Assembly: GCA_051362555.1 (NCBI GenBank)
Contig: CM120642.1
Location: 26,908,001-26,972,000, forward strand
Direction: 5' to 3'
DNA: 64,000 nt
Source: Lingula anatina
Lineage: Eukaryota > Animalia > Brachiopoda
Below are positions 1,842-28,244 of this stretch, piece after piece. Made by a program: the position numbers and the translations under genes. The notes below the pieces were generated by a model that had not been told where the DNA came from, did not search any database, and worked only from the letters and a program-made list of their open reading frames with translations. Numbering within the stretch: the stretch's first letter is position 1; every line of letters begins with the position of its first letter.

Positions 1842-1886
<45 letters not shown>

Positions 1887-5463: not shown

Positions 5464-5517
<54 letters not shown>

Positions 5518-6585
5518 GAAGTCAAATTCAAAGAGGTTTTGAACTATTGGAAACTTTTGACATCGAAAATTATAATGGCTTGAAATATATTTATATATAT
5601 ATACCCCTCTTCAAGGTCCCGCCAGCAGAGCTGGAGGCAGTGATATTGACTAACCCAGCGGTTCTTGACGTAGCAGTAATAGGTGTCGACGACGAAGAAG
5701 CGGGAGAGCTTCCCAAGGCGTTCGTCGTGGTAAAACCGCACGCTCAGTTGTTAGAAATAGAGCTTCAGGATTACGTTAAAAGTAAGCGCATATCCTATTT
5801 GTGAAGTGTACGCAGTTTTTAATGGAATGTTTTAATAGTATAACAAAGCTGTAATTGCAATAAGATCAAACTTAGAAAAATTGAATTATTCACTCAGCTC
5901 TTTCTTGGAACAAGCATAGAGGCATTATTCCCCTTCATGGTTTGATATTGCATCTGCAATATAAAGACTCTGCTCAGATTTGTCAGACAGTATATTGAGC
6001 CCTAATTATATATTTGTTCCTTTCCGTAATTTGAAAACTGTTTGATGGTCAATACTAAAGCGAGTAATAACAGAGGTTTGGTGAAAATTGTCATAGAGAA
6101 ATAAGGGGAAATTAATATGTCTACTTTATGAAATATAATGTTCTTTTTAGCAAGAATGTATATTTATATCAGTGCCAAAAAACTTTTCAGAAATATTTCT
6201 TACTTTAATGTATGTAAACAAATATATATGGCTATATAGAATGGGCGTCGAGAGAGTACTACGCCATTCATAATTTACTGTTTATTTAATCATAGTGCTG
6301 TGAATTTTCGTAAGTCCTTTATTTCAAGCAAGCAAATCTGATTTGTTTATCATATAAACATCGCCATAATTGAAAATTGTATTTATCTTTGGGCATTGAA
6401 ATGAATGGATTTTTTGTTTGTTTGTTAATAACGCCTTTTTATTTATATTGTTATTTACTTCTTTTTAAGCGAAAGTGGCTCCTTACAAACGGCTGCGCGG
6501 TGGAGTGGAATTTGTTCAAGAAATTCCAAAGACACCAACTGGGAAGATTCTGCGGCGTATGCTAAAAAATCGGGATCAGAAATAA
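459..6585 (+). CDS. 4-coumarate-CoA ligase-like / firefly-luciferase-like acyl-CoA synthetase (ANL superfamily), 5'-partial, 8 exons
   Basis: Exons 459-661, 1014-1191, 2418-2589, 2887-2987, 4317-4458, 4834-4916, 5616-5781, 6470-6585; all GT-AG and phase-consistent (386 aa + stop). Motifs: [18 protein letters not shown] (AMP-binding P-loop), [81 protein letters not shown] (catalytic Lys). N-terminal exons lie upstream of the window. Confidence 0.95.
1979..2230. mobile_element. Foldback MITE family B (PIF/Harbinger-like), intron of the acyl-CoA synthetase gene
   Basis: ~80-bp imperfect terminal inverted repeats (GGGCTCATTTCCATTG... / ...CATTGTGAATGTGCCC) followed by TAA; homologous to copies at 33956-34069 and 42120-42371. 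Confidence 0.75.
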
Positions 6586-8032
6586 TACGAGCAGGAAAAA
6601 GGAGAAGATAGATGACAACACAATATTCAGATCTGTGTCCGAGCTCTGCAAACCGGTCAACCGATTTTGAGACCATAATACCCTGTTTTCACACAAGATA
6701 CAATTACTTTTTTTTGTTTGTTTGTTTGTTTGTTTGTTTGTTTATTTATCTTTTATAATTTTTTTGTCATTGAATGAAATTGTAGCCGGGACTTTGTTCA
6801 TTAAGCAATATTAAGCATTAATAAGCAATGATTACAGTATCTGCATCCAATTGCACAACGTGTATCATTGCTTAATTTGTTGATACATCGTGTCATTCCG
6901 GCACATAAACTTTAAACAACACGTTCATGTAGTTTTATAGGGTTTATTGTGTAAAATATCTTACATTAATGGGCGACTTCTTTTATAGAATTTGGTGCTA
7001 TATGTAAAAGACATAGACATACGTCTTATCCTATTGCTGCCTCCAAAAGCAAAAGAGGTTAAGGATATTGTCACCCTTCGGCCAAAATTCCTTATTTACA
7101 GCCTTATATACATTCTTCTGTTGGGTTATAGATTAATCTTCAATGTTCAGTGACTAAATTGATTAACATTTACATAAATGTCGTCCTACGGGAGAGTAAT
7201 AATTGCGATTTTGGGCTCAAAACTGAAAAATCGTTTTCTCAAATTTCTTTTTTACCCGAGTACCCACGATCGCCGCTTCATCGTCGATTTAAAGGCACCA
7301 TTTAGTACTCCAAAACCATGCCAGCGATTTATCTTATAAGTTTTAGTTCAGATTTTATCGTTGATAAAGCAAAATTTTGCCTTTATTAAATGAAAATCTG
7401 TAATAAGGCGCCCATGACTACATTGAAAAACTACATTAACCAAAATGACGGCACATGATTGTAGTCCATACACTCATGGTTAGCTCTGCCAATTTTCGTG
7501 ATAAAATCTTGTTCATGGATGAAGTTACGCCCCTTACCGATTGCTATCTCACCTCAAAATAGGAAGGTGTTAAATTGACGATTAAAGCTTTGAGTTTTCT
7601 ATGCTTATACATTGCAACGAGAAATATAAACGCCGATATTTTATATTTTCGAGGGTCTTTTTATTGTATTGAATCAGCACTAAGATAGATGCATTACTGA
7701 ATATTAAGATGCAACGAAAACCTCATTTTCGGTATCTGGATGATAATAAAGGGTTACAATATCCTTAAATGTTCTTGTTACAGATCAGGTAACAAATAAA
7801 AGTCATTTTACATTTTATTATGATTATAATTATTTGGTAATATAATTGATCAAATATTTTAAATTTTACATTCGTTTGCATTGTGTGCATTTGTTTATTT
7901 CCGTGAAATACCAGTATAGAAGTTCAAGTCCTAGATTTGTCATTTTCTCATCAAAAGTAGGCGTCAATCTGCAGTTTCAACTGTTTTCTTCTCTTGGACT
8001 CAATATTTCTTTCTTGGGATTAGAACTTCTTC

Positions 8033-8395
8033 TCATTGCCCCCTGTTGTATGCATTTTTACTGGCACTGTTCCTGCGCCAATTGCTTTGGGCCAATTGCT
8101 GAAAAGCTTTATTCATCAAAGGATGAAATGTTCTTTTCCCAAAAAACGGCCGTCGTCTGCCCTCTTCTTGTTGTTGATAGGCCAACTGTCTCTCCCCATA
8201 GTATTGGGGCAAATGCGTTTCTAAGAATGGATGGAAAGGCGCTACAATTGCATCCATTTGTGAGGGATAATTTTCTTCATTTTCTACATCTTGGGCAAGC
8301 TCTTGGCGAATCCAGTCTTCGATTGAGGCACAATTCACATCAACAAGTAACAGCAGTAAAGTGCAGCATATGATTGAGGTTGCCTTTGGAACCAT
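8033..8395 (-). CDS. Secreted prepropeptide 1 (120 aa; neuropeptide- or defence-peptide-type precursor)
   Basis: Signal peptide MVPKATSIICCTLLLLLVDVNC, acidic spacer, GRRRPFF-GKR (amidation plus dibasic site), C-terminal peptide with internal RR. Start context CAAAATG; splice acceptor (tttatgttacag) 13 nt before the ATG; AATAAA at ~7894-7899 (-). Confidence 0.85.
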   Translation of the reverse strand: MVPKATSIICCTLLLLLVDVNCASIEDWIRQELAQDVENEENYPSQMDAIVAPFHPFLETHLPQYYGERQLAYQQQEEGRRRPFFGKRTFHPLMNKAFQQLAQSNWRRNSASKNAYNRGQ

Positions 8396-9169
8396 TTTGA
8401 TAAGAAGTCTGTAACATAAAATTATAACGTGGGGATTTTAATTGCTTGAGGTTTAGTGAGATATATTTTATAAGTGAAGGGATTTTTTGGCAACGCCTTT
8501 CTTGACTAATTGTTTTCGATGCCTAGTGGTCACTTAAGAATATAATTTAGTCGAAAGAAACATGCACATACTGGAAATGGAAGGGTCAAACTACCGGCTT
8601 TTATTAGCTATAAAGGTTGTAAAGACAGATTTCGATTCATCTTTATTTTCCACTGGATTAGAGTTTTTCTTTTCACATAAAGGGCATAGCTTAACTTCTT
8701 TGTGAATATCTTAATTAGGGAATATCTTAATTAGGGAAAATGAAAGTAATGTCTCACTAAACGTGTAAGCTCCGCACGAAACACGAGAAAATCGGAAAAT
8801 CAAATTTGTCCGAAAATCACATTGTTTACAATAACGACCCTTTAAATTCTGTCTCATTTAATGGGAAAGTTATTTTATAATTTTATACTTTGCAGCCAAA
8901 AACTTAAACAAGAAATTCCTCAATCACTGAATAATTTAAACTCAGTTTATAGAAAACAGCTGAAGAAGCAGTATGCTTAATATTCCCAAACGTCAAATAA
9001 TAAAAACGTTGCTTTAATAGACTTAAATACAACAATCTTATAGAAATTTCGTAAAATATAATGTATGCTACTGTCTTTTCTTATATTACTAATTAAACTA
9101 TGGTAATCTAGCTTTGTTTCCACCAGAAGGTGACGTAAAATAATACGTCGACGCCGGGCGTGTTTGCAA

Positions 9170-9207
9170 AACTGTCTTCAGAATGCAACACCGATAACTT
9201 TATAAAA
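9170..9207 (-). promoter_or_regulatory. Candidate TATA box plus initiator for prepropeptide 1 (non-coding first exon)
   Basis: TATAAA at 9204-9199 (-) with an Inr-like ACAGTT whose A (9173) lies 31 nt downstream; CRE-like TGACGTAA at 9131-9138. The acceptor before the ATG at 8395 implies an upstream UTR exon. Confidence 0.45.
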
Positions 9208-9968
9208 GAGGGGAAATCTTGGTCATTAAGAGTTGGATTTTATCATCGTTAGTGGGCGTGCGATCCCAGTTGGTAGTGCGCTCTCCCCATAACTACTACC
9301 TTTTCTATTCATTTGTTAAATCTTTGAATGAAATGCCGAACAAAAATTACCAGAATTGCTATGCTGTAAATTGACAAGGGTACTAGCAGCGCTCACCTTT
9401 TATCAGGGATACAAACATTGCATTTTTTTAATGCGTAGATCGATTTGTTTAACATGCTATCAGAATTTATAAGAATAACGCATACAATGATAAAAATCAA
9501 TATGAAAAATGTTTAGAGAACGCGTGCAAGCATAAAACTTTCACTTTGATGAAAAGCAAATCTGATCGCGTCTCAAGGAGGGTTTTCCTAGACGAATACA
9601 GAAATTCATACTTATTTCCCACACGTAAAGATAATGTACATTTAAGACAGCTGCTGCAGTGATGAAGTTTTTTCTTGATTAAAAAATAATTATAAAGGAC
9701 ATAAGCCAACCCAAATTGTTTTTACAGCAATGAATAACGCATTACGGAAGTCTCTTGATTCCTTCCGCTCTGATTATCATATAACAATAACGAAACTCTC
9801 TGGAATCAGTTTCTCTGTCTGCTTTACAAACAAATACTATAAACGATAGTTTGGTCTGAATTGTCAATTTTGGTGTCAGCTTCTTTGGAAATTTTGCAAC
9901 AGGAAGAGCGATCAATGGCGTTTAGAGTGCCAAAGGGGAAGTTCGCGAAAACTCTGATGAAAATTCAG

Positions 9969-10385
9969 TTAATCCCTGTCAGGTGGCGAAGCTAAACACA
10001 TGGAAAGACAAGTTTTCTTTGTATTTGGCGTTGTTCCTCCAGCAAGAACATTGCACTGGAAATTACAACGGTTAGCACTCTTTTGCAGATATCCCCAAAC
10101 TCGCTTGCGCTTTCCCAAGTAACGCCGGCGCTTTTGTTGAGCCTGCATTAGGATCTCATCGTCTCTGTCGTTTTCTGCGGGACTATCATATGCAATATTC
10201 GGATAATATGGCCCAAAGGGAAGCAACACAATCCCATGATGCGCTGCGTCTCGCATGTCTGAAGCGTCGTCGCCGTCGTTAGCGTTCAACCGAAACAGCA
10301 GCTGGTCGAGTGGAAAGCAGTTCGCAGCGCCCAGCAGTAGCACGAGAAATGCGCAAAATAATTTCATTACTGGTATTGTCTTCAT
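9969..10385 (-). CDS. Secreted prepropeptide 2 (138 aa) with C-terminal CX3C-X14-CX3C domain
   Basis: Signal peptide MKTIPVMKLFCAFLVLLLGAANC, acidic pro-region, KRRRYL-GKR-KR, then VWGYLQKSANRCNFQCNVLAGGTTPNTKKTCLSMCLASPPDRD. Acceptor (ttttttttacgcatttcag) 11 nt before the ATG; same architecture as 8033-8395. Confidence 0.85.
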   Translation of the reverse strand: MKTIPVMKLFCAFLVLLLGAANCFPLDQLLFRLNANDGDDASDMRDAAHHGIVLLPFGPYYPNIAYDSPAENDRDDEILMQAQQKRRRYLGKRKRVWGYLQKSANRCNFQCNVLAGGTTPNTKKTCLSMCLASPPDRD

Positions 10386-13300
10386 CTTTGAAGCGCCTGA
10401 AATGCGTAAAAAAAACGCTGCCTAAGTTTTTCATTTGACATCGGAAGCGCATTTGGCAACAACTCATTGAATGCTTCTTACACAAGAGAGAATTTTAGCG
10501 CTTAGCTTGGCAACTCGCATGCACTCAAAAGACAATGGATTCGTAAATTTACATTTCCAGAAAAAATACTTACAGAATCACTCTAACTGTATACTAAGTG
10601 AGCTTTTATACTATTTACTTACAGTCTGGTGATATCAAGAAAAAGTTACATAAACATGCTAAAACTCTCATATACATGCAAGCGGTAGTGTGAGCAAAAT
10701 AAGTCAGTGTCGCAATAGAATTGGAAGCAATCCAACAGGAAGGACAGTTTATTTGGTTTGATGGATATGGCAACCCTTCAATCCATCCGCTAAGCAAAGT
10801 GTTTGATGTCCCGACAAGTAATCAGATCCCTTCATCGACAATCCAATCAAAACCGTTATCATTACCAGTGCGCATAATGTGTAATTTCCATTCTAGTTAT
10901 TGGGGAAATCGTTTTAATGCACTCGCCAATCATTGTTGGCATTAAACACAACATTTTACACCGCGTAAACATTCGCCTTTTGTACACTATTAGGCACGGG
11001 GGGAGGAAACAGTCATACTCATCGAAATTGATTGTGGACGCTTTGTTAAGGGCATCTGGCGACGAAGCAAACCGAGGCATCTAACTGCTTTGTGCGAGAA
11101 TCTCTTCCGCGTTTCTAGCATTTGCCCTTACCGTTCATGCTGAAGACAAACGCATCATAACGGTTCAACAATTGTAGGCAGTTTTTATTGTAACGGTGTC
11201 TTAATTCTATGCCACCGAACAAAGGGGCAAACCTTCCAATCTCTACTTTGTGTGTTTAGTTTACAACTTTTTTTCAACGGCGATGTGTGGTTATCATTAC
11301 TTTTGGCGCGTTGATGACCAGAGCTATTCTTGGTATTGAAGAATATCTTTTCATTAATGCAACCACAGTACATTTGTGTTTGTAACAATCGATTACGGCG
11401 TCGATAAACAAAGACTTAAATCAACCGTGTTAGCCAGGAACACATTCTGCTCTGCTGTAATACAACTTAATCCAGTTGTTCTCTCCATACAACTTTGCAT
11501 GGCTTTCATTGTCTATTAAAAAGAGCGAGTTCAAGTATAGACGTGAATGAAATTACTTTTCATATGGCAAAATCCTATTCAACAAAGAAATTGTTTGTTT
11601 AGCGAAATTACAATGTTAATTACTTACTACTAAAAATATTTTTCAGTGATATAAACTTAGCATCAAGTAAAGTCACTATGTTTTAACATGCTCGTATAGG
11701 CACAGGCTTTTCAGTTTGGCACATAGGTATTGCGCTGTTTTATATTTTATCTCTATAATATGCATTACGGTAAACTGCCATCTTTTGGTTCTTTTAATAT
11801 ACTATCGCCATTTACTTTTTGTGCAGTTATTCACAACGTACTTGCCACAGGCAAAGGTTAATACATCTCATTCTTTAATTTTACAGTATTTTATTTAACT
11901 GAATAAATATAGTATCTCTTCATTACGGTAAACATTGGATACGGAAATTATGAACAATGTTCTCACATTTTCCTTGGTCTTTTTTTTTTCAGTGGAAAAT
12001 CTAATTCAATGTTCAAATCGAATGCATTTCTCGTTAACTATCGTAAAAACGGGATAGATTGTTACGGCTAAAATATTTATGTAATATTAGAAAATAACCT
12101 TTATGTCAAAGTTCTCAGCAAAATTGCTTGTCGATGACATGCAGCGTCACCTTATCGCGTACATTTTCTTATTATTGGACATTTTTCTACAATAAATAAA
12201 TCTTCCCATTACCAAAATGAATTAAAGATATTGCCTGGTGCATATAAGTCAATGTGTTTTTATACGCCTGGTGCAAGATAAGTCCCAAGTCATTGAACGA
12301 ATTCAGACATTTGTTGTGAATTTGTATCGAACATTCTGGCTAAAGCCTTCTTTGTCTTTCCAAGTTAATTCAAAATTTATCATTTACCAATATCATAGCC
12401 TAAATATTTTGATCATGTCAATGCAATTTATGAATGATTCAGTTTACTGAGTAAATAAACATTAAAAACGTGATTCTATATTAAGAACTTTAAATGAGGA
12501 TTTCTTGTTATCGTGTGTGATTGTATTTTAAAAACCATATCGTTAAACTTTCCCCGTAAGTAGGCCTAGACCAACTGACATTAGATGCTCAATAATAACT
12601 TGACTGAAATGGTATACCCATTACAAAGTGCTCACCTGGCTATGTCGCGCTAGTCTATGTGTCGTCTCGGTCCTCTCAAGTGTTATTACGAGTGTCGCAC
12701 TGGTGGCTTTATAGGTGTCGTGCCAGGTAGACTTTGAATGACGGTGTTCCTGTCGCAGAAAAGGACACCGCGTTTAACAATCCTAGGTTTTGTTTTTATG
12801 TGGGAGCAATTTGTAGAGTCAAACCATTATCCGGGCCCACGGTGGCCGTTAATGAAACACTAATCTAGGCGTTTCAATCATTTAGTCAAAGCAGTCACTG
12901 AAAAGCGCCGATATCCAGGTTCCTTTATAGGCTTCAGATAGCGACGTGCTGTCATCTAATTTGCACCTTAAAAGCCAAGTGTATTAATTCATTTACTTTC
13001 ACTTTGTGGAGTTAAATGTCGCTTTTCCGTCATTGCAGGAAACGGTAATCACGTCTACGCTAACTTGAAGGCGTATAATAAGTGAATAATAACATATGGT
13101 CATTAGTGTTAGTTTAACGTTAATCGAAGACAAGCTGCGTTGTCGGCTAAACAACGTTGACTTAAAGTGTAAGTCGCGCGCATTCTGAATCTCTTAAGTC
13201 AATCGCAGCGGAACTTACAAGAATAACTTTTACTAAAACGGCAACAGTTACACGAAGCCTTTAGTACCCCTAACAAAACAGTTTTTTGATGGTGACAAGA

Positions 13301-15320
13301 GTTTATCTACCTGAAACTAAAAGACGGAATATTTGACAAATGGTATACTAACATCTCAAAGCTGTTTATTCTATGCCAGCACCTTATCGCTTGTGTAGCC
13401 ATATATAATGCTAGTCACCTAATTTTATTGTCACTTTTTGGCGTCATTTCCACACCAGTTGTCCCACCGGTCATCAAAAATTCTCTTTGTTTCTTCCATT
13501 CCTTTTTTTAACCTTTGTGATACTTTTCATCGACAAAGTCTGATAGAAATAATATTTCCTGGTAGTGTTAAATTCCACTGGGATTTTTTTTCTGAATGGA
13601 GTTGTATTGATGGTTTAAATTAATTTAACACATTTCCTCATTTTTCGCCTTAGGAGGTCGCTTCTCATTGGTTCACGTAGGAAAAATTGACACAAAAAGG
13701 TCGTGATATGCTGCATATCAATTTTGCATTTCGCTTTCGTTCGTCAACAAAATAACAATGACGGTTATATCCTCGTAGCCAATGAAAATACAGTGGATTT
13801 GCACCCAAGTGTGATATATGTATTATTGATTAGAGTGCTAATATTTAATAATTGCCTACGCAAAACGTGGGATCAAGGTGTCCAATAATAGCGACATGTA
13901 AACTTTAAGTGTGCCTTTTAAAATAAGCCCAAAGTAATTTTAGTCGTGTTACATAATTCGTAGACAAGCTCAAGTGCTGAGAAGGTAATGCCCCAAGTGA
14001 CGTATGTAGTGTCATTCAAAGACATACTAAATTTAACCAAAGGGTTGATGGGACATTCTATTAGAAGCCCTACTGTTTACTCTGATTTTCTAAATTTGTC
14101 TCTTCCTTGAGTTTAGTGTATGTAACGGGATTTTTCTATTGTAGGTCGACTGGTGAAATGCCCATTTATAACCGAGTAATTATGGTAGCAGACATTGTTC
14201 TCAATTTGCGATCATTAAGCTTTTCATCGCACGTGGACAGCTATGGTGTTGCGTCGTATCACACCTACGTGACACTATTTTTGGTTTGGTTTCTGAAAGT
14301 ATATTGTAAAAAATCTACAGTTACTGAATATTTTTTACTTTGCGATTCCATTTTATCTACGAGTCTGTCAACCGATTATTTAGGGCAGGCCTTACGAAAG
14401 TTTTGCGTTTTATTGTGTTTTGCTATAAATTCAGTGTTGAACGTAGTTAATGAATTCCCAACTTTGGTGTATTTAGATTTTGTTGTCCTTCTTCAGTTTT
14501 GACCAATACATACAAGTTGCTGTGAACATAACTGACGTGTTGGGATATCGAGTAGGAAAATAGGGTAGAACTTTGTTACAGTGGAAACCATGTCACTAGC
14601 GGCACACATGATTTTGTTTAACGATTGTATACCATAAAAGCGCGCAAATAAACACACACAAATAAACACACACAAATAAACACGCACGCGCATGTCATTA
14701 TTTACACGTGCACGTACCTATGTACGCACTCTTAACACGCACTGTCATTCATAACAAAGATGCCAACAAAGACATCCTTATCGACATTCACCTAATTTGA
14801 AGCGACATGAATCTTAAGGGTGTAAGAAAAAACCGCTGAAGTTGTCAAAAAGAGTCCCCATGCTTATATTTTGATAGAACGGTCTTTCTTGAGATAAATG
14901 CATCAAACGAAACCACAATGTCCTTTATTTTCAAGAAGGGCAGTCTTAAACAGATTTCCATAACTTTTCAATGCGCTTTACTTTGCCAAGCTGCAGTAGG
15001 AGTTTATTAATGCTAGTTTTTTTTCTTTCTTTTTTTTTTACAAATTAATCTAATTCTGCTATTCCATCCCGTGGCTTGCTTTTGTTTCTTGCTTTCATGG
15101 AATGCTGGTCACCTGTTCTCGATCACAATAGTCTACGTGTATGTACATGGCTAACAACTTTCAATTTTCATTTGGGATATTTTTATGGTGCAGTATTCAC
15201 AAAATTTATCGATGATTGGTTCATTTTGGTTTGTGGGTCATTGTATGCATTTATCACCTTAAGGTTTCTTGTGTTTCGAGTAAGTTTCAATTACTTGGTG
15301 ATCACATTTCTCTGGCACGT

Positions 15321-15513
15321 CAGTGGCGGATTTACAGGGGGGACAGGGGGTCCTAACCTCCCCCCCCCCCCTTCGGTTTTTGAAAAATTTATCGCACCAA
15401 TATCCCCCTTTTGAAATTAGATGTTTGACTAGCTAAATCATAGTTCTAACCCGTACGAAAGGCCCGTCGTTCTGGACCCCCCCCCCCTTCAAATAATCCT
15501 GGATCCGCCCCTG
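15321..15513. mobile_element. Non-autonomous DNA transposon / MITE (CAG(T/G)GGCGGAT termini)
   Basis: Inverted termini CAGTGGCGGATTT ... GGATCCGCCCCTG; flanks CACGT/CACTT resemble a 5-bp target duplication; same termini as 29991-30158. Confidence 0.7.
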
Positions 15514-17118
15514 CACTTACATGTGTACACTTCGGCCTAATTTACTATCGAAGGACTGGATGCATTAATTGAACGCCGCAGGTGGTCACACACCCAGACT
15601 GCAGTAGCCTGTAACAGTCTATCATAAACAATGAAGCAGAGCAGTAACAAAATTATTTTAGCTGTAATACACGTGTACAGACTTTAAAATTAACCAGTAC
15701 GCGAATCATTAACAGTTTGAACACATACTGTGTTTTGGGTGTCAACTGTTGACAACATACCCTCTTTTACTCTTTTTGCTTCAAATCATCATGAAATTCA
15801 ATATTAGCAGATTTCTGGCTAAAGTTATATTTGGAGAAATAAAACAATTGTATGATTTCGTTTATTAGTCACAGTAAAAAAGGGATAAAAGGATATTAAT
15901 ATAAAGTGCATCTGCAGACAGAGTAATTACGATCATTGCTATAAAGGTACATGTATATCAACAGAAGAGACAGATAAATTGAGTCAATTACTTTCTGAAT
16001 ATTCACATATGCACTGAAACATCATTGATTTCCAAATGATTAGTTCGACTGAAATAGGATTATAGTCGTAAAATTAACAAATAAAGGCGTGGGCAGTTCC
16101 ATATCCCATATGACACCTATCCCTAACTGTATTGTTGCTTGTCTCACATATGAACCATTCCGGTCAAAAATGAGATTCTTGAGTGTCATTATTTTGTCAC
16201 ATAATAGAACTTATCTGTCAAAATATTTACATATCGTGTATTCCATAATGGTGATAAACACCAATACACAGATAAAATGCAAGAATAAAGTGTTGCGAAT
16301 TAACAATGCATTAGTTGATTGCTTATACCGTTTTCTGTCTGTTATTTTTATTGTCCGTAGCATTGGTTGATATACAGTACATGCAGTTTATCATACTCAG
16401 ATAAAGCCGTTGAAGGTTATCCAAGTTTGAAACTAAACAATACCTTGGCGAAGCAAATCAAATTCCGGCATGAATTTACTTAAAATTGATACGGTATCAC
16501 TGGGAGATGCGTACGGCACGTTATACACGCAAGCGAGTCACAAATTTGACGAAAACGTCGCTAAGTTAAGGCATATGGACTGACTTTTGAAAATTAAATC
16601 ATAGCCTGCTCCAATTGTTCACGCCTACTATTTCGTTGTTATATACAGAAATGAATAAACAGTTAAAGTAAAATGTCAGCTTAACACCAAAACTGCCAAA
16701 CCATTCTTCAATATACACTGCAGCGCTTAAACAAGTAGGCCTACATAAGGCGTTCTTGGCCAAATAACAATGATTTTAGTTTATCCTTTTGTCACCAGAT
16801 GTCAGCAAGTCTGCCCTGCTTCCAAGGCAAGGTAGTTTTTACATGTCATCTATGTGCTTTTGCTTGAACCGGAATAGAGCATCACTTTTATGAGAATATG
16901 AATAATATCATAATATTCCACTGCTTTATTGAAAATGGGTGTTTTCAAAAGTTAAGCTGCGATATTGCTTAAAGCATTTTCAAGACTGATGTTTGTGAAT
17001 TGATATCCCCTTTTTCACATTCCGAATTCGGTTAAAAGCTATAAGGAAAAAAACACATTTTCACACTTTTCTGAATGTCAACTGACCCGAAATACTCGTC
17101 CTATTGAATGCTTAACTT

Positions 17119-17772
17119 TTACTGCATGCTGCAAATCTCGTCCAATGCGAGACTGCAAGAGTCAGGATTCTCCCTGCAATACAGACAAGAAAAAGTAACG
17201 CTCCAAAGCCTGTTCCATCCTCGCCTGGACAAAGCGATAGCATCCTGATCAAAAACCATGTGCCTCTTTCCTTTTTTTTCGTTGTATGTCGATCTGGGCA
17301 CGCCCTCATAGCTCCGCCATTTAGGAATAACATTGTAGGAGGACGAAGATGAAACGAGAAGTTTTCTCCAGTTACGACTATCGATATTTCTTGCGGCATT
17401 TATCTTCAAGAAGATTGGGTCACTTAAGGTGCTTTCATTGATGCCGTTGCACTGCCCTGTATAACTGCACGGGGTAGTTTCGGGAAACACTTTAGATGAA
17501 GGCCGAAGTTTTGATAACACCCAAAATCCTATGGGAACAGTTTTGCCTTTTCTTAACAAATTTAACCCGGCGAGGACGTCTCTAAGATGTCCATTCTGAC
17601 TAGGCGACCAAATATGTTTCTGTTCTCTTCGGTCCGTAAGAGCAAAAAGATCTTTTAGCTGCAAATCTTTCTGCAGCGCAAAGTTCTCAAACAGCCGAGA
17701 AGGCGAGACGCCCAGTTGCGTGGTCAACCCAATTGCAAAGAAGAAATGGAGAAGTTTACTTGTCCAGTACAT
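17119..17772 (-). CDS. Putative secreted prepropeptide 3 (~217 aa from MYWTSK; open frame extends to 18018)
   Basis: A 900-nt stop-free frame in AT-rich DNA. Signal-like MYWTSKLLHFFFAIGLTTQLGVS; basic sites RR, RK, KKGKR, RR; C-terminal 4-Cys peptide GWNRLWSVTFSCLYCRENPDSCSLALDEICSMQ. Acceptor-like tttttgcag at ~17884. Start codon uncertain (in-frame MVMY upstream). Confidence 0.6.
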   Translation of the reverse strand: MYWTSKLLHFFFAIGLTTQLGVSPSRLFENFALQKDLQLKDLFALTDRREQKHIWSPSQNGHLRDVLAGLNLLRKGKTVPIGFWVLSKLRPSSKVFPETTPCSYTGQCNGINESTLSDPIFLKINAARNIDSRNWRKLLVSSSSSYNVIPKWRSYEGVPRSTYNEKKGKRHMVFDQDAIALSRRGWNRLWSVTFSCLYCRENPDSCSLALDEICSMQ

Positions 17773-19614
17773 AATTATAAGTCCGTCTCCCAGGCAATTA
17801 ACCCAATCAGATTCCAAACCCCAACTGGCGGTGTACATAACCATGTCAAAGGATGGAAAGGGCGGCTCATCACCACATATCAGCTGCAAAAAGTATGATG
17901 AATTGAAGCTTTGGTGCTGCAGACGGACGTTATTAGTTGCGCCAAAGGGACATCCACCAGGTTCAATTGCAAGGAACAGCAGCCATGTCGAATGCACGTC
18001 CCGAAGGACTGCTCTCATCGGCGAATTGAGGATTATGAGTAGACCCGATGGCCGTAGATGATGTGAACACGTGAGAAAGTTTCACCTTGTGATTTATGTC
18101 TCAAAACCACATAAGGCTGCTATTTCTCTAAACACGTCGTGCCCCCGCCTGGCCAGGCCTGGCAACACCAAAATGCTATTTATTACTAATGCTCGCTTTA
18201 ACCATAAGGTTATCAATGTTTTTTTTCTTTTGCAAAAGGTTTCTATTTCAGATTCTTACGCCCACTTAATTAATTGCCTACCGATAGGCAAGCGCGCCGT
18301 AATTACTAATGACTTCACCTCGATGTGGAACGTTCAAATGTGTGCAAAAGGTGCTTGCAACAAGTAATTCAATATGGAAAATATATAGGTGTGTTTTTCC
18401 AGTAGCATAAACATACGCGTCTGTATTTTTGTAGGAGACATCCCAATCCCTCCCTAATTTTCTTATTTCTTTCGATTTTTAGAATTCTACCCGCCGAAAG
18501 CAGTGCGTTACGTAGCATCTATTTACCTAATCTAATGGCTTTATCCATTAATTTCTTGATTAAAAAATACATTACCCTTAACACGCAGCTCAGTTTACAC
18601 ATTTATTATTTAAAGAATAACGCAACATTCTGCACTCCCTCGATACGTTATTGTTCATAAAAATAATGTGGATCAGAAATGATTTGCAGAGCATTTTCAG
18701 AGCAATGCAAAAGGACATTTTCCGAGAAAGTGGTGCCATGCTCTTTAAGCCTTACAACAAATGAATAAAGAATCATACTATATTTGAATATTAAACCCAA
18801 TTTTGTTGCACAGAATAAACACACAGTCCTGTCATTATATGGTTTACCCAGGTGAGTAATAAAATCCGCCTTTCATACCACCTCTTTAAACCTATCATAC
18901 TTTAAGTCTCATTGCCTTTATGTATCATTGCAAACGTCCACCTTTTCGGACATGGCGTTGGCGGTTGGCAGGTAACGCGATTCTCACAGGAAACCGCACT
19001 CTGAAACTGTGTTTTCTTCCATTGAGAAACGTGATACAAAACTTAAAGTTCAGCGAGGCAAGATTAATGACACATTTAAGTAAGGTTACTAAGTAATCTG
19101 TTAGCACAGTGTATTGGATTTTCAACGCTGCCCTGAAAGTGACCTGGTGCTAATCGATTTTAAGAGATGTTACTGGACAGTAACAATAACAGAAGTATAA
19201 TGATGTGGTTGTCAAATTGTAAAACTTAAAATTAACTGTACATTAACTATATATTGATTGGTGAAACATCAATATCAACAAAAAAAAGTTGGTCGTGTAA
19301 GTAATAAGTCACGTTTGCCTCAGGTTTAAAAGAAAGCTCCAGAGAAATGCTCTTTGAGTTTCTTTTATATACCGCACCTAAAAGTATTTTCTGTCGCTGT
19401 GAATCAATGATAAATAATTTGGTCCTCTTTCTTGTTTTTTTTACTCAAATATGATAATAAAATATCTGAACCGCTTTTTCCTTCGATCATGTTTAGGTTT
19501 AGATCAATGCCACAATACAGTGTACTTGCAACGTGGATCTGCCAATGCTATGCTGGAGTATCATATGCTCGGGTTCTGCTCATCACGGGACAAATGATAA
19601 AAGAATATAAGGAC

Positions 19615-19860
19615 AAAAGGAAGAGGTCTCGTCGGGGGACTCTTTTTCCTCACCCCGTCCCCCCCTCCCCCCCCCCCCCTCTGCGGGGCCCGAGGGTCTA
19701 AATTGCCAAATTATTCTTACTCGCTCATATTAAATTTTTGAAAAAGGTCCCGCCTGGGGGGGTTCCTTTTCGTCCGCAGAACCCCCCCCCCCCATCCCCA
19801 CCCCCACGGGGTCCGGAAGGTCCCTTTTGCCAGATTACTCTTATTTTCTCACAAATATGT
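19615..19860. repeat. Diverged ~120-bp direct tandem duplication with long C-tracts (G-runs on - strand)
   Basis: Two copies of AAAAGG..GGTC..CG..GGGGG..TTTT..CCCCCC..CGGGG.CCG..GGTC..TTGCCA.ATTA.TCTTA. Confidence 0.6.
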
Positions 19861-21200
19861 GAAGTGAACAACGTGTATATAAAAAAACAAAAAGGATCCC
19901 ACCCGAGGGTTTTTTTTTCTGTCCGCATGCAGAGAAGGGACAGAAATTAAACGAAAAAGGGAGAAAATAAGGAAGAAAAGAAAATATTAAAGAAAGAAAT
20001 CAATAACAAAGAACAACTTAAAAACCATTTATTATATCATAATAAGAACAACCAAAAGCAAAATAGTTCTTTTATTCGATTTGGCGTGAGATGATGTACA
20101 TAAGAAAAACCATATCACTTTATAGTACTGGGTATTTAGATAACACCAGTACCATCATTACATAGTTATATTTAGTGCTTTATCTTAAATAATAATAATA
20201 GTTACATCTGTTAAAATGTTATTTCTGCAAACATGTCCATCGAATGTTTTAACCGTTTTCATTTCTGAATATAATACACGTTCATTGAAACGTGCATATA
20301 TAATGTGCGTTCTTATACTTTCGTACTTTCTCTATGTATACTAGTATTACTATATCTCACTTCTGTCCAATTATAATTTCATTTGCAGAATATCTACATG
20401 CATCATAGGTTTAAATAGAGACTTGCTATGTTTGCTCTGTAATATACATTGCTCTTGTTATGGGCGAAGAATCTGCAATTAAATATATCATTAACATCAA
20501 TATAATCAATACAAATGTTCTGTCACTGTCTTAAAAACTTATCACAAAATTTATTAAATCGCGTCTACCACAGCTAAGTTTCGATTTTACACGTCCACGT
20601 ACATGTACAATTACTCTGACTACACTGCACAACAAAGTTTCTGGTTGTCTTAATAATGTTTACTATGTACATGGTCCCAGAGAGCATTCACATTGAGAAG
20701 AGCCGAGGTCTAGCAAGGCCGAGACCTAAATATGGCGGACCTACACGTAATCCTTTGATAATCTCTCAATGACATTCACAGCGTTCAAAACAATTTCATT
20801 TAAAGACACAATCAAGGAACCACACTGAGCTACAGGTATGGCGCGGCTGCTGGAGGTCGTAAAAATTTCTACCCGGCTACCGAATAGATTCATACCATTT
20901 TGGAGTAAAAAAAATGTATTGTTCTGACAAAGATAATCAATTCGCCCCTGATTGATAATGTCCTCATCAGTAATTGTGATTGGCCCTCCAAGTAAAGCGA
21001 TGCCCAAAACGAAAAAGAAAAGAAAAGAAAATCCTGGATCAATTTCTGATCCCTGCTACTGCGTATTAAAAGTTTTATTTTTGAAATTCCATTTCAGTCA
21101 TTAGTGCAATAGTGTGGCTTCTCTTAATTCCCTTTGGGAAAAGGCCCTTGGCTCGATGTTTGAGATGCCTTACTTTGGAAAAGATGAATCAGGCAATGAT

Positions 21201-24200
21201 TTATACCTCATGCGGATCAGGGTCATCGCTCCCGACATCCTCTGCAATGCTTCTTATGTGGACTACGGCGGTTTCAGGAAACGAGAGTGTGGGTCCGCTA
21301 TTATTTCCTTCATACTCGGATTCGTCCACGGGACTGTCACCATTCCAAACACTGGTGGGATTGTTGTTGCAACAAACAGTCTTCTTTATGGCCTTCTTAA
21401 AGTTTTTACAAAATCTCGTCAGCACGAAAGGTTTGATGGAGCTGGAAATGCAGGTCAAACAGTGACCCAAGATGGTGAAAATATTTTTCAGTTGAGCAAC
21501 CGTGACATCGTCTGTATTGACTCCGAAATCGGTACCTATTTGAATACAGTGTATCGGAAACCAAGCCACAAAGAAAATAATGAGAATCACCAGCACAGCC
21601 TTCGCACTTTGACGTCGTGCTCGCAGGGCCCCGTCATGACCTCCCTGACTTTGAACTTGACCTTCGGTCACCTCAGATTGGTGGCCAATACGGGAGGGCC
21701 AAAGTGCTCTCCACATCTTCCCGTAGAAAATGGTGACTGTTGTAAGTGGCAAGACAAATGTAACGCAAAAAATCGAAAGTGTGTATGCCTGTCTGTGACG
21801 CTCAACTTCCCAAACCTCCGTACACGCTTCTGATTCTTTGCCTTCTTTCCAAAAGGTAACTGTAGTGGTGGCAAAGAGAGCTGGAAGAAGCAGGAGCAAA
21901 CTACCGGCCCAGATCAATATTATAACTATCAAAGTGAGATCCGCAGTTCTGAAAAAAAAAAGAGAGAAAAATTTGTAAAGCCAGAAGAAAAAGAGTAGAC
22001 CTGCCCCATACGTGCGCACCAGTAGTGCTGCCTTACAGGAATGTGTTGTAGTAGATGAAGACAGAAAGAAAGACCAATAACAGACCTTATATACGGACGA
22101 GTCGTTTACTAAGGCCCCATTCAGAATAATAATAAGGAACTTACTAGTCCGAGGGTCAAAGATGGCCGACCCACTTGAATACTTCCCCACGGGATATCTA
22201 TTTAGTGTCTTTTAGCGGATTAGAAGGCAAGCTTTGTAGTGGGTCGCCATATTTGACCCTCGGGATAGATAGATAGTCCCCTATTCTGACTTGGGCCACA
22301 GATCTTTCACCACTAACACCCATATTGACCACATAACCCACAAACTAACCAGCACTACCAAAGCGGATGAATGTTAGTGCTAGGTATCGCTTTGTACGGT
22401 GTGTTGGTTAATTCGTGGGTTTTGTGGTTAATATGGGCGTTGCTAAAAGATCTGCAGGTAGTGTTAGTAAACGCCTTATCCATTTATGAGGCCTGAATAT
22501 AAACTATGACGCGTTGTGTTCAAGTCGAGCTCCTCTCTGCCTTGTACTTATCACAGAAATAATCCCCAAGCTTATAACGTAAATTAACTTTAATGGAGTC
22601 GCGGGTATGTGCATGCGACTCGTTATATAGTATCACTCAGAAATCTCTTATCCTTCATTGCTCTTATCTAACCTAAACGAAATTTACGATCTCGCGGTCT
22701 GTCACGCAGATATCTTGCATAAAACCAGGCAACGACCTGCTAATAAACTGAGTTTTGGTTTCTTTTTTAAACCAAGTCGTGGTGTTGTGTTACTTTTTTC
22801 TCCTAGAGAAAAAACAGGTTGGGAATCGTTAACCGAATCTAGATCTTCTCTAAGTAGGATAAGAGCTCTTTGAGTGAAATATATCCAGCCGTATTTCTAA
22901 GAACTCATTACAGTACCTTAAAATAACCATTTTTTACCACTAACACTTTTTCGCTTATTTTACGTTGAATAAGCAGTCTGAAATGTCTTTCAATTATGAC
23001 AATATCTGGGGCTGACATTTTCCTGGAATTGATGGCCTAAACAAGAGCAGACCCCTGGAGATATCGCCTGACAGCTAAATCCTCAAATGCTTTCGTGTTT
23101 CTTTTCATCGGTTTTACGGTTTCGTCTTATAAATGCAAGAGTGTAAACTCAGGTAATACTCCAGGAAAGTGAGAATATCGTATGACACTGTCAGTACATT
23201 TGGCACTACTGCACATTTAACCGATAAAAAAGCCAATATTTTGACTCAGTTATATTATACTAAGTTAATGAGAAAATTGAATATTTTACTGGAACTTAAG
23301 TTGGGACACAGATCAAGAAGTTTCGACCTTATTACAAGGGCTTCTTCAGGTGAACTGATTCTGAGTTGTCACCTTTGTCACGAGGTGACAAGCACCTAGC
23401 ACGATTAAAGTGAAATTCCGCCGATAGTTCACGGCAGAGTTCCTCATTCATTTATCACGTAAAGGATATTTTTTGCAAGTACCAAACAAATCTGCTCAAA
23501 TACATTTTGTGACATTTACAATGATGAAATTACCTGTTAAAGTTCCGTTAGGCCTCATTCAGAACAGTGGACTAACTAGTCCGCGGATTAAATATGCCGA
23601 CCCCCCCTTAACAGCTTGCCGCCCAATCCCCTAATAGACATTGAATAGATTCCAAGCAGAGATTACCAGCAACAAGCATTGAAGTGGGTTGGCCATATTT
23701 TACCGCGGACCAGTTAGTCCGCTATTGTGAAGGCGGCCTTACAGTGCCTGATGGGCTGCGCATTTCCTTGTCTGCCACTGATTACAGTGTCACGTACAAG
23801 AGAGCCCCTGTGATACAGGGTCTGGGTCCCATTGCTTTTCACAACTTAGAATTTAACATATTTACGTCACGCTAACTATATATTATCTAACCTGTATGGG
23901 TGTAATGGAGGGTGGAAAAAAAGTCTCTATCACCGCGGCTAATCTATGCCGCAAACTCGTTACTTTTTTCGTATTCATTTTTGGTGAGCAGATGCTGCTC
24001 TCCACCAGGGTCGCTGAGTATTTTTTCACTAGATATGCACAGAAATGTCTTTGGCTACTTCATGCCACGATTTACGCTGAAGAAAAAAATGCATATTTTT
24101 AATCTGCGACCCTGGTAGAAGAAAAGCAGGTGCAGCGTTTGCAGACGGAGGTCGCTTAGGTCATCAAATAAAGCACATTTCTTAGAAGTCTCGCAAAACT

Positions 24201-25143
24201 GGCAGAATTTCGTGAACAGATTTAAACCAAGATGCCGTTTTATTGTCAAGAAAAACACAAAAGTCTCACATAAAGCGTGACACGTTCCAAATGGATCCAG
24301 TTTCTTTATTTATTTATTCAAAACGTACACAAATGTGGATATTCTACTTGGATAAGTGACATATATTTTAAAAGAGACAAAAATGTAACATTGATTTTAT
24401 ATATAGTAAAATTATGGTCGAGAGAAGGACTGAAAAAATAACGGTGATTTGTGACCACAGTTTAATGCAAAGAGCCGTAGTGGATAGGTCAAACAAACGC
24501 ATTAAATAACATTCCATCATTTTCATTAGAAAAGATAATTAGACATCGCGACAAGACAAAGAACGGCTAAGCTTTTGAGCGGATATCTGCCTCTGGCGAA
24601 CCGCATGTGACGAGTCAGTGTGGTATTCAAACACCACGTGGAGAGATTAAAGGGCTCTGCAGCGTATTTTATGGATCAGGTGTCTACGCAGAAAAACACT
24701 TTGCAATGCATCGTTATACAACGTATGTACAAATATCACGCAGCGAAGTATCTGGAATGGACCGGGCCTTGACAAATCAGAAAAAAAATTGAATTTAAAA
24801 AAAGGGGAAAATGTCTTTTTCATACTAATCTAATAAAGGTATAATTTTTCAAAAAAAAAAAAAAACAGATGCTGTGTGCCTAAAATCTCGATTGTAAGGT
24901 TCTGTAACGCTTTTATCCAATTTGATATCTAACTTTAATAATTCTGTGTTTATTTTAACTTAATTTGATCTTTATGTTAATCTCTAAAATTCCATTTGAT
25001 CTCACAATTTACAACTTCAGGCTTTATGTTGTAATGATTTGAAAAATACATCATTATTATATCGTTCCTCTGTTCTTGCGAGTTGTGTGTGAGTTATCCA
25101 CCTAACTTTATACTTTTGAACACAAGTAAAAAGCAATTGCAGT

Positions 25144-25194
<51 letters not shown>

Positions 25195-26823
25195 GACTTG
25201 ACATTTAATATGGAATATTTCAGTTTCGAAGGTATGCCTAGGTGAAAATGCGTTCTTTTTTCACAAACTCCGATCTCATATAAGATATGTGAATGGAGAA
25301 GTGTGTAGTCAGGTGTGTCGCTACCAAATAACTGAATACCAGGTTTGTTGTGCTGCTGCAATATGTAATATGCAGTGATTTAATTGGGTAGTGCTCCTTT
25401 AGGCAGGTCAAAGCTTGGGTTTGGCAAGGCATGGTTCTGTCACAAAAATATCCATATATCGGCAACTACTGCATAGAAGAATTTGAAATTTTGCATGCAA
25501 GTGGTCGGGTCTGCAGTGTGTAATATGAGCTATGCAGTGCTTTACAAATTTGTTAATCTGTTGCAGAATGGCGCGTAAAAACAGGCATTGCCAGACAGAT
25601 AATTGCTCCAAACAAAACGGTCCGCACAGTTTTATAGAGTAATGCCCAGACAGATGTACCTACACAGAGGCCACACTCAATATATTGAAATCTTACCACC
25701 AGGGTACAGGACCCACTGTCTTTCGGGATATGCTGTTGCAACTAAACAAAAGCCACCCAGTCCGTTCAGAATGAGGGGTAAATTACCACCAAAACGCATT
25801 TTTCAAGGCCCTTAGCCAACACCAAACTGGTTTTAGCAGGTTAGAATGCCAGACGACCTCCCAGGAACCCACTGTAAACAGCAAAACATCGTTGTATGTT
25901 CTCTAATGAATTGGGGACTTTGACTGTTTCTGGATTGAACACTGAAATCTCGTGGCTTTCTTTATTGAGGTCAGATTTCACCTGTACCGCTCAACAATCA
26001 AAACAGAGATTACAGACATCCAGAAGAGGCCAACGACGAAGCGTGTGCCGCGTCTTAAGTGACTAAAGTCATTAACAGCGTCAGTATTTGGAGTGGATAC
26101 CACATTGGTGCCAAAGCACCAATGGTAGTCATCGACGAAAACCTGAACCAGATCAAATAAAGAAATAATCTCGAGTCCACTTGGCTATCATTTGATAGGA
26201 TGCAACTGAGGAACAATTTTAGGTTGCACGGTGAGATTGCCGGTTCTTACAGAGCACTTTTAATAGCAGGTTACTTACAGAACCAAGCGAATGAGCAGCT
26301 ACCTTGGTCATCAAAATCGCCATATTTGAACCACATAGACAATATGTGGGTAGGCCATTACTCGCTGAATCAATGTCCTACAACAAAACTGGACCAAATT
26401 GAAGAGATTTTGACCGATGCCTGGAATGTTATTCCAGATTGAACTTTAAAAACCTATCCCAAGGAATGCCTTGCCAATTGAGAGCGCTGGTAGTAGCCAG
26501 AAGAGGTTAGGCGTAACTGTGACTGGACACTGACATGAGGGTCCTTTGTGGAGCATGTAACTCTTTTACAGACAATAATTTGGAAAATATGGAGGTCCAA
26601 AATATCTCTTTTAATGGTTGTCGTATGACAAAGAATAGGCAGTGTGTTTTTGTTTGCTTCTCTGGCGAATTCCATTACTGAACTGATGTCACAATGACAT
26701 CAAAGAGATAATTTAAAGTTATTAAAACACGATTTTAATCCTTATTTTCATTTATCAGTCAGCAAAATAGGAAAAAACTGATGAAAAATGATTTGGAAAA
26801 AAAATTCTATATTAAATGTCAAG

Positions 26824-26874
<51 letters not shown>

Positions 26875-28085
26875 AGAACAGTTACCGGAATATTTTTGCT
26901 CTGATAGGGTACAATATGGTGTAGTGTTTGTCGATTGTCATCGCTGTCAACGTCGCTATGGAAGTTGCCATTGTCACAATCATAAGGTAATTGGTCAACT
27001 TACCTGTAAGGAAAGATGTTCATAAGGTAAAAAGTCAACTTATCTATAAAGAAAAACGCTCATAAAGTAATTGGTCAGCTTATCTGTAAAGAAAGATGCT
27101 CATAAGCTACATGTAAATGGTCAGCTTATCTGTAAAGAGATGCCTAATTTATTTTAAAATCAAAGATCATCATTACTCTGATACATGACTTCTATCTAAC
27201 CTATGCCCCTTGAATCTTGATTACCGTTGACTGTAACCGAATAATTGCCTACGTTTTATCTTGCTTTGATTTTAATAAAAAGACTTTTAATTTCTTTCAT
27301 TCGGTATTGAAAAATTTATAAATCAATCTTTTAATGTTTAAACATACATCACTACCCTATTTGAGACTTTATACTTCGTTATCACCTGTTGCTTTGCCAA
27401 TAAGTGTGATATAATACACTGTCAGCCGAGCGAAATGTGTAAATATCGGATAAATGAAAAACGTTACGAACCTTTGCCTTTCATTACCTATAAAATTATT
27501 TATTACCAATCATTCAATAAAAATCCCTAATAATTATCTATTATTACTAATTATTTACTACTTCATGACATTGCTTGTAGTACATAAAAATTCCACAATA
27601 TCGATTTTATAACTTCCGTGTGAACATCGCTTCAAAATTCATTGATCAAAAAAAAAAAATTCACTGTAAATGTAATCAATTGAAATATTATTGTAAAAAT
27701 AGTACTTACACATCCACTGCCCAAATGGCCAAGACTCCAAGATATACACGGTGGTAGTATACGGCACACAAAACACCAAAAACACCAAATCCGCCAGGGC
27801 CAGATTGAGAAAATAAAAGTTGGTCAAAGTCCGCATGTTTTTATTTCTGATAACTGCGACCACGATGAGCACGTTTCCCACGATTCCGATAAGAAACGCC
27901 ACCGTAAAAACAAACGGAATGAAAAACTGCGTCACATTTGGCGGGCCCTTGTTCAGTTCATAATCAAAGTAATAGTAATTGGAAAATAAGTCTGGATCCG
28001 TGAGACGCGTACAGTTCTTCTCAGACGCGTTGTCTGCTGTCGCGCAGTCATCCCAATAGTAATGGTAGTAGTGGTAGTCCTTCAT
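21201..28085 (-). CDS. Rhodopsin-class peptide GPCR, kisspeptin/galanin/allatostatin-A receptor-like, with non-canonical activation motifs (413 aa, 3 exons)
   Basis: Exons 28085-27710, 27003-26886, 21948-21201 (phase-1 and phase-2 GT-AG introns; 1242 nt, no stops). TM1 GIVGNVLIV, MRTLTNFYFLNLALADLVFLVFCVPYT, WPFGQWMCK, TM3 TLTAMTIDKHY, TM4 IWAGSLLLLLP, ECL2 Cys, TM5 FVLPLTTVTIFY, TM6 FFVAWFP, TM7 SSSIKPFVL, helix 8 NFKKAI. Confidence 0.93.
22113..22297. mobile_element. Foldback MITE family C (PIF/Harbinger-like)
   Basis: Inverted ends GGCCCCATTCAGAAT.. / ..ATTCTGACTTGGGCC, preceded by TAA; related to 23551-23738 and 33200-33430. Confidence 0.7.
22299..22454. repeat. Imperfect inverted repeat (~70-bp arms), probable MITE
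   Basis: The left arm CAGATCTTT..ACCCATATTGACCACATAACCCACAAACTAACCAGCAC..AAAGCG is mirrored by the reverse complement of 22386-22454. Confidence 0.65.
23551..23738. mobile_element. Foldback MITE family C (PIF/Harbinger-like)
   Basis: TTA target duplication on both sides; TIR GGCCTCATTCAGAACAGTGGACTAACTAGTCCGCGG / CCGCGGACCAGTTAGTCCGCTATTGTGAAGGCGGCC. Confidence 0.8.
25193..26827 (+). mobile_element. Full-length but decayed Tc1-family transposon (~1.63 kb) in GPCR intron 2
   Basis: Perfect terminal inverted repeats CAGACTTGACATTTAATA / TATTAAATGTCAAGTCTG with TA on each side, flanked by (CA)n and (TA)n. Transposase relic LPWSSKSPYLNHIDNMW (cf. Tc1 WPxxSPDLNPIENxW) at ~26300-26350; the frame is broken by stops. 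Confidence 0.9.
26981..27143. repeat. 40-bp minisatellite (4 units) spanning the GPCR exon-2 splice acceptor
   Basis: Units start at 26981, 27021, 27061 and 27101 (CATAAGGTAATTGGTCAACTTACCTGTAAGGAAAGATGTT and variants). Confidence 0.9.
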
Positions 28086-28244
28086 TTTCCTATCAATAAG
28101 AATTTGGCAAAAGCCTTTTTTGTTGAAGCTGGGTGTCTTAAAATGTTAGGCAGATATGACATTAAATCTGGTGCTTGCGATCTATTCGTGTCTTTTTTAA
28201 ACTTCTCACTTATCCTGCTTCCATGCGATATATATATATATATA

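Follow-up and report, generated by a model that had tools for sequence, protein, structure and literature searches.

Two Putative Secreted Peptide Precursors on Alternative Last Exons of One Lingula anatina Gene, Downstream of an Orphan-Clade Receptor With Altered Activation Switches

The stretch of DNA analyzed here, hereafter the window, comprises 64,000 nucleotides of the brachiopod Lingula anatina (assembly GCA_051362555.1, contig CM120642.1, positions 26,908,001 to 26,972,000). On its minus strand lies a transcribed gene that is spliced into two forms, each with an intact open reading frame (ORF) in a different last exon, and upstream of that gene a rhodopsin-family receptor that belongs to an orphan bilaterian clade and has changed at its activation switches. 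On balance, and with little better than even confidence, we read the locus as a whole as one gene that produces two putative secreted precursors, A and B, by alternative last exons, beside a receptor that is likely silent toward G proteins and is probably not the partner of the peptides.

One Peptide Gene With Two Last Exons

ORFs A and B lie in alternative last exons of a single transcribed gene and do not represent two genes. This was established from raw RNA runs bearing the same species label (tissue labels coded), of which 6-30% each was read. Seven reads, three in run X7 and four in X8, connect the end of exon 1 (12636) to the acceptor of exon B at 10396, a joint first listed at 10395-12635, and six more (one in X7, one in X8, four in X9) carry a variant joint at 10399-12641, which is read as the same splice from another allele. 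A further six reads (four in X7, two in X8) connect 8408 to 12636, that is, exon 1 to exon A with B skipped. Together the 19 junction reads from three runs show that both precursors are spliced; the joints have GT-AG ends and the short side of the reads measures 34-37 letters. In X4, a stranded-looking run, first mates over B fall on the plus strand only, at low depth, which fits RNA of the minus strand. A and B are weakly expressed (depth about 15-17 in X7), with only a trace over A in X5 and no RNA over B in X1 and X2.

A TATA box (TATAAA, 12708-12713) with presumed promoter function stands upstream of the shared first exon (12636-12700), which is delimited by the joints in X7, X8, and X9 and by read depth; its 3′ end is exact, with the donor GTGAGC at 12636, and its 5′ end is approximate. 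The sequence from the TATA box to this donor contains no ATG, and exon 1 is non-coding. Last exon B (9969-10396) carries a 138-amino-acid precursor (ORF 10385-9969) and continues into a 3′ untranslated region (UTR) that extends below 9969, its end unmapped; poly(A) hexamers follow at 9432-8605. Last exon A (8033-8408) opens at acceptor 8408 and carries a precursor of 120 amino acids (ORF 8395-8033). Both acceptors are canonical and stand 11 and 13 bases ahead of the two start codons. Exon B is wholly nested in the intron of the A form, and the number of coding bases common to A and B is zero; each supplies its own start codon and signal-like leader as well as an acidic pro-region and a G-K-R site. 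Tandem duplication of a coding exon downstream of a single promoter could have produced such an arrangement; transcription ending after exon B would then yield precursor B, and skipping of the B acceptor would yield precursor A.

Differences between the reads and the window offer a small natural test of both frames. Among the best-supported 40 of 145 difference rows, 12 are coding differences in A and B, seven of them silent (binomial p 0.014 against 25%) and nine at third positions (p 0.004 against 33%), both comparisons being with simple neutral expectations. The B frame has only three listed differences, and the three indels among these 40 rows all lie within its 3′ UTR. At many positions between 7800 and 10400, nine of them within 185 bases of ORF A, the same-label runs also carry apparently fixed differences from the window, which suggests a distinct population or a cryptic species.

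Predicted Products of A and B

Four of the 26 ATG-initiated ORFs longer than 80 amino acids in the window contain a G-K/R-K/R motif; of these four, A and B alone begin with a strongly hydrophobic N-terminal stretch (8-residue hydropathy means of 3.12 and 3.31) that gives way to small residues. From the leader onward the two share a layout of acidic pro-region (net charge -10 in A and -9 in B), basic run, two hydrophobic residues, G-K-R, and cationic C-terminal peptide (+5 and +3). The dibasic site, with glycine as the amide donor, is G-K-R at residues 86-88 of A (8132-8140), after G-R-R-R-P-F-F, and G-K-R-K-R at residues 91-95 of B (10101-10115), after K-R-R-R-Y-L. By established prohormone processing, convertases would cut at R-R-R and at G-K-R(K-R), and amidation would give [R]PFF-amide from A and [RR]YL-amide from B. 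The remaining long product would be a linear, partly amphipathic cationic helix of 32 amino acids from A (8036-8131) and, from B, a two-disulfide hairpin of 43 amino acids with the spacing C-x3-C-x14-C-x3-C (9972-10100). A structural model of the B tail (residues 96-138) predicts a helix-loop-helix, with helices at 2-20 and 25-37 and a predicted local distance difference test (pLDDT) score of 75.

Alignment of A with B beats shuffled sequences (p 0.0005 for the whole precursors, p 0.02 with the leader removed), and the common layout includes P-F-x-P in the pro-region and Q..RR..GKR. The two are likely weak paralogs produced by tandem duplication of the coding exon, although this is not proven.

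The same gene structure would also suit a role in host defense, in which the main products are the long peptides and the acidic pro-region neutralizes the cationic tail until its release, with the short amides as by-products and the receptor as a neighbor that has no part in the system. An acidic spacer of this kind is typical of antimicrobial precursors, and the opposed charges of pro-region and tail are in line with it, as are the amphipathic stretches of the C-terminal peptides (moment 0.58 and 0.54) and the lack of any sequence common to the two tails. The predicted hairpin of B retrieved the alpha-hairpinin BWI-2c (Z 4.7, root mean square deviation (rmsd) 2.5, 40 aligned) and acrorhagin I (Z 4.9, rmsd 1.9, 39 aligned); however, these stand amid many tied generic matches, the best with Z 5.4, all below the level that the search tool calls meaningful. 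A phmmer search matches B to a small Tim protein at E 1.4. The part that A and B have kept is the basic-aromatic-Gly-Lys-Arg segment, a hallmark of amidated neuropeptides. This conservation, the low level of expression, and the few differences in the B frame, which do not amount to hypervariability, all argue against defense, which we consider unlikely but deserving of a substantial minority share of belief. We favor A and B as putative precursors of secreted signaling peptides, about twice as strongly as defense peptides. A resemblance of W-x-x-N-S-A in A to the N-terminus of galanin was set aside, being post hoc and having no cleavage site before the motif.

No relatives of these peptides were recovered. 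Exact look-ups of seven forms of A, B, and the third ORF, C, gave no match in the collection, and none of the three belongs to a Pfam or NCBIfam family at the curated cut-off. A word-index search with an alignment of A, B, and C found nothing at E 10 among 3114 candidates, which is weak evidence given the poor profile. Rfam has no match in 5000-32000. In the ESM Atlas, B had only matches below 0.9 to assorted neuropeptide precursors, useful as a lead only. The sequences of A and B are not in the covered portions of two lophotrochozoan neuropeptide catalogs, and a motif and accession search of the accessible portions of the supplements to PMC8557429, PMC6425005, PMC12509031, and PMC9400282 gave no match to them; with supplements covered in part, absence is unproven in both cases. 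Within the same partial coverage, the literature gave no account of the A and B peptides, of a two-precursor design in a peptide gene, or of the clade to which the receptor belongs.

ORF C

The third minus-strand frame, C (17119-18018, 299 amino acids), is an orphan and is probably outside the peptide gene. Its 320-codon stop-free frame (17122-18081) is not due to chance, as none so long occurred in 2000 shuffles or in 60 simulated 20-kb stretches. The leader is weaker than those of A and B (2.36 from Met1 and 2.39 from Met83 on the 8-residue scale), the pro-region is basic (+9) and so opposite in charge to theirs, codon periodicity is weak, and alignment with A or B is no better than with shuffles (p 0.27 and p 0.79). 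RNA depth over C is zero in all seven runs mapped, of nine listed, with 6-30% of each run read. A fold predicted from Met83 has a pLDDT of 33.5 and is unusable, and neither viral contigs nor the ESM Atlas gave a match. C may be a separate orphan frame that is expressed elsewhere, or a relic.

A preliminary description of this locus had proposed four genes: three secreted prepropeptides forming a tandem family, and a receptor. The three ORFs and the receptor are present, and so are the G-K-R sites in their contexts (PFF-GKR in A, RYL-GKR in B, EKK-GKR in C) and the C-terminal peptides described as one linear and two with four cysteines (B has four after the site, C four in its last 33 amino acids). 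The RNA joints, however, merge A and B, which have a common first exon, leaving at most three transcription units. Strong leaders and spliced transcripts hold for A and B, C has a weaker leader and no reads in the seven runs mapped, family membership is probable for A and B as duplicates and C falls outside it, and the description of the peptides as new agrees, for A and B, with their absence from the catalog portions covered.

An Altered Receptor of the Rhodopsin Family

Two GT-AG introns divide the receptor gene into three exons, all on the minus strand, which together encode an unbroken frame of 413 amino acids. Exon 1 (27710-28085) runs from the N-terminus to the first extracellular loop (ECL1) and ends in a phase 1 intron within a Cys codon before transmembrane helix (TM) 3; exon 2 (26886-27003) encodes TM3 and the second intracellular loop (ICL2), with DKH in place of DRY, and ends in a phase 2 intron within an Arg codon; exon 3 (21201-21948) encodes TM4-TM7 and the tail, with KPFVL in place of NPxxY. 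The 7tm_1 family is matched by exon 1 at E 5e-14 and by exon 3 at E 8e-23.

The helix anchors N1.50, D2.50, W4.50, P5.50, P6.50, and P7.50 are all kept; D2.50, W6.48, Y5.58, and the prolines are among the retained residues. Of 29 columns conserved in at least 80% of homologs, the receptor differs at five: two of the changes are conservative, and the others are R3.50K, N7.49K, and Y7.53L. Lysine at 7.49 occurs in none of 113 homologs. The mechanics of class A receptors give reason to read the losses at 3.50, 7.49, and 7.53 as blocking activation. Because R3.50, N7.49, and Y7.53 are lost while the structural core is kept, the receptor is likely silent toward G proteins with its fold preserved. 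Its pocket residues are retained as well, but Lys7.49 would sit opposite Asp2.50 and pair with it at the sodium pocket, and this pairing, along with the absence of Arg3.50 and Tyr7.53, would hold the receptor off G-protein coupling.

Several features of the surrounding sequence concern this gene. At 26980-27138 a 40-base tandem array of three to four decayed copies repeats the exon 2 acceptor and first codons upstream of the true exon, and it could possibly offer cryptic acceptors. Between 25042 and 27042, in the introns, RNA depth in X7 reaches about 100 per direction, with many differences and loose ends; this signal is that of a transcribed multi-copy element and not of receptor mRNA. Inverted repeat pairs resembling miniature inverted-repeat transposable elements lie upstream of the gene (28756-28977/29371-29603, 79% over 234 bases) and inside it, in intron 2 (22131-22310/23536-23726, 67% over 196 bases). 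An acceptor-like AG precedes the ATG (28086-28110), and there may be a non-coding exon farther upstream.

Placement of the Receptor

The receptor is a member of an orphan bilaterian clade of "galanin-like" proteins that neighbors the kisspeptin and galanin receptors and is apart from both. Among solved structures, exon 3 matches GALR1 best and exon 1 matches KISS1R best. Among 1.84 billion representatives, the best matches of exon 3, at 30-35% identity, are nemertean, chiton, and priapulid proteins labeled "galanin-like"; a word-index search with exon 3 found no homolog at E 1e-10 among 650 candidates. An IQ-TREE phylogeny of 46 rows, chosen from the 114 of a first FastTree (36 of the 46 unlabeled, and no named allatostatin-A (AstA) receptor among them), places the receptor within a starred set of 17 rows with support 95/89. 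That clade includes nemertean, chiton, priapulid, limpet, hemichordate, and crinoid rows, its named members being Tubulanus XP_074655558, Liolophura XP_064613098, Priapulus XP_014680759, Patella KAK6196252, Saccoglossus XP_002735583, and Anneissia XP_033114504; the highest identity of the receptor to any member is 37%. Two clade loci from animal metagenome contigs, L001 (1-1136) and L002 (9238-10588), encode members with intact motifs and have both receptor introns at the same positions and in the same phases, the exon 1 intron of L001 being represented by its acceptor side.

Two named identities were considered and rejected. A kisspeptin-type receptor is ruled out by the separate set of nine rows with amphioxus KISS1R (99/97) and by intron positions: kisspeptin-type introns are given as phase 0 in TM3 and phase 1 in TM4 (PMC9400282), unlike the phase 1 intron before TM3 and the phase 2 intron in ICL2 found here. 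A chordate galanin receptor is likewise ruled out, the GALR1-type rows (P0012 and the amphioxus P0077) being on another branch. For AstA receptors, of which the tree had no row so named, the one bivalve row (P0067) that we take as such falls elsewhere. The kisspeptin/galanin/AstA label first given to the receptor is thus a loose fit only, although the altered switches reported with it are as described.

The receptor could also be a duplicate that is degenerating into a pseudogene, with C as a relic frame and only the A/B gene functional. Receptor RNA is almost absent and C RNA absent, the receptor's end branch in the tree is long (1.04 against a median of 0.74), and exon 3 has no match above 35% identity among the 1.84 billion representatives, so that no annotated Lingula anatina ortholog surfaced. 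The unbroken frame of 413 codons over three exons, whose splice sites are canonical and conserved in position, and the retention of structural residues while the switches change argue against decay, and transcripts of neuropeptide receptors are often too rare for a 6-25% sample of a run. We judge pseudogene status to be quite improbable and retain a fold-preserving, likely G-protein-silent receptor as the preferred account.

A Ligand-Receptor Link at the Locus

The peptide gene lies 8.5 kb downstream of the receptor in the same orientation, which raises the idea of a linked ligand-decoy locus in which the products of A and B are ligands of the orphan clade and the local copy binds or clears them. 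The peptide gene has no match in the catalogs and the clade has no ligand in the literature searched (parts of supplements beyond that coverage may bear on this), the receptor's changes sit on its activation switches, and X7, the only one of four runs with receptor reads, is also the richest in peptide reads. Amidated or disulfide-bridged peptides are the ligands of the named receptor groups closest to this one (PMC12509031, PMC5818035).

Against a link, the adjacency is a single observation, and no positive evidence beyond it was found. The clade extends from priapulids to hemichordates, yet no homolog of A or B was found. This negative is weak, since short precursors diverge fast and the profile of three sequences was poor. 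In addition, tblastn of A, B, and C against 80 loci drawn from an alignment of clade receptors, of which L001-L003 are clade members (L002 with only 1.8 kb downstream), gave nothing below E 0.04, and none of 416 ORFs was a convincing precursor. A prediction of the complex between the B hairpin and the receptor scored 0.00 in two runs made with neither alignments nor controls, and counts neither way. Genes for cognate neuropeptides and receptors are generally unlinked. In starfish, the receptors are on chromosomes 4, 10, and 15 and their cognate precursors on 13 and 22 (PMC9400282). A linked ligand-decoy arrangement appears improbable, as does a cognate pair at this locus in general. Slimmer still is the prospect that the A/B gene is the source of the missing ligands for a clade spanning priapulids and molluscs to hemichordates and crinoids, with the silent copy clearing the peptides. 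Were it so, one promoter would pick between two ligand sets beside a linked decoy. In any event, the locus supplies a short list of peptides worth testing on receptors of the clade.

Weighing the Reading

Returning to one gene with two signaling precursors beside a silent, unpartnered receptor, a number of points speak against this account. Low RNA depth persists between B and A (8548-9669); this may reflect long 3′ UTRs or read-through, and both ORFs may be present on a share of the transcripts. The coding variants were taken from a best-supported subset of the differences. The signal peptides of A and B were judged from hydropathy, and their products are known as predictions from the sequence. 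The predicted amidated products are very short, and an acidic pro-region with a cationic C-terminal peptide would suit defense peptides equally well. Paralogy of A and B rests mainly on leaders and cleavage sites, because neither the pro-regions on their own (p 0.19) nor the C-terminal peptides (p 0.82) are significantly similar and the DNA shows no match. For the receptor, the switch set was picked after the data had been seen (p about 0.01), and five or more of the conserved columns are also missed by eight of 78 full-length homologs. Receptor RNA in the four runs is limited to X7, at a depth equivalent to about two reads (one bin, 0.03/0.47), with depth 0 in X1, X2, and X4 and no joint, in a mapping that left out exon 1.

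Flanking Genes

On the plus strand, a multi-exon AMP-binding gene (acyl-CoA ligase/luciferase-like, 447-6587) converges on the peptide gene. Farther upstream on the minus strand, an SLC4 bicarbonate transporter gene occupies about 32700-44500; its exon at 36409-36957 shares 84% identity with a Lingula anatina protein and no more than 47% with any of the other 47 matches, which places the window in a Lingula brachiopod.

Comparison With Known Systems

The forms of CALCA have signal-peptide and pro-region exons in common, and to our knowledge alternatively spliced peptide genes share at least the signal-peptide exon. A and B, by contrast, share no coding base and have no calcitonin-type motif. 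CALCA is nonetheless a case of one gene giving two peptides by alternative splicing (PMC6283891). The design of the A/B gene is closer to the cholinergic locus than to calcitonin/calcitonin gene-related peptide. At the cholinergic locus, promoter and non-coding first exon are shared, one whole ORF sits within the other's first intron, and use of the first poly(A) ending gives the nested product (PMC13163293). The A/B gene has the same shared exon and nested ORF, with the first ORF wholly in the intron of the second; however, VAChT, a transporter, and ChAT, an enzyme, belong to different families, whereas A and B are single-exon peptide precursors and probably duplicates. Two complete precursors without a common coding base on one promoter would be a cholinergic-type design adapted to secreted peptides, and it suggests a simple way in which a peptide family may be founded through exon duplication.

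With respect to products, the lophotrochozoan F[V/L/I]amide and LRNFVamide/PRQFVamide precursors are multi-copy with F-V/L/I-amide ends (PMC8557429). These amides resemble the predicted A and B products in being short basic peptides with an aromatic and a hydrophobic residue before G-K-R; a pearl-oyster repeat is one Phe from the B site and a nemertean repeat one Ile from the A site. They differ in that A would end in FF-amide and B in YL-amide, as single copies followed by a long C-terminal peptide, outside the family motif and copy number. The motif of allatostatin-A and buccalin is Y/F-X-F-G-L/I-amide (PMC12509031). This motif is absent from A, B, and C. The twin CX3C motif and the helix-loop-helix that define alpha-hairpinins are both found in B, the latter in its predicted model.

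The receptor marks out a bilaterian peptide-receptor clade apart from kisspeptin and galanin, for which no ligand was found. The six named clade proteins keep DR(Y/F) and NPxxY, where the Lingula receptor reads DKH and KPFVL. Atypical chemokine receptors of the ACKR2 type are peptide-binding class A receptors with an altered DRY-region motif, and the Lingula receptor has a comparable decoy-type signature of altered switches with the fold kept. It differs in belonging to another receptor family and in the loss of NPxxY with Lys7.49 as a further change, and scavenging is for it a candidate function only. The receptor is a candidate for an invertebrate decoy in which a lysine is built into the sodium site.

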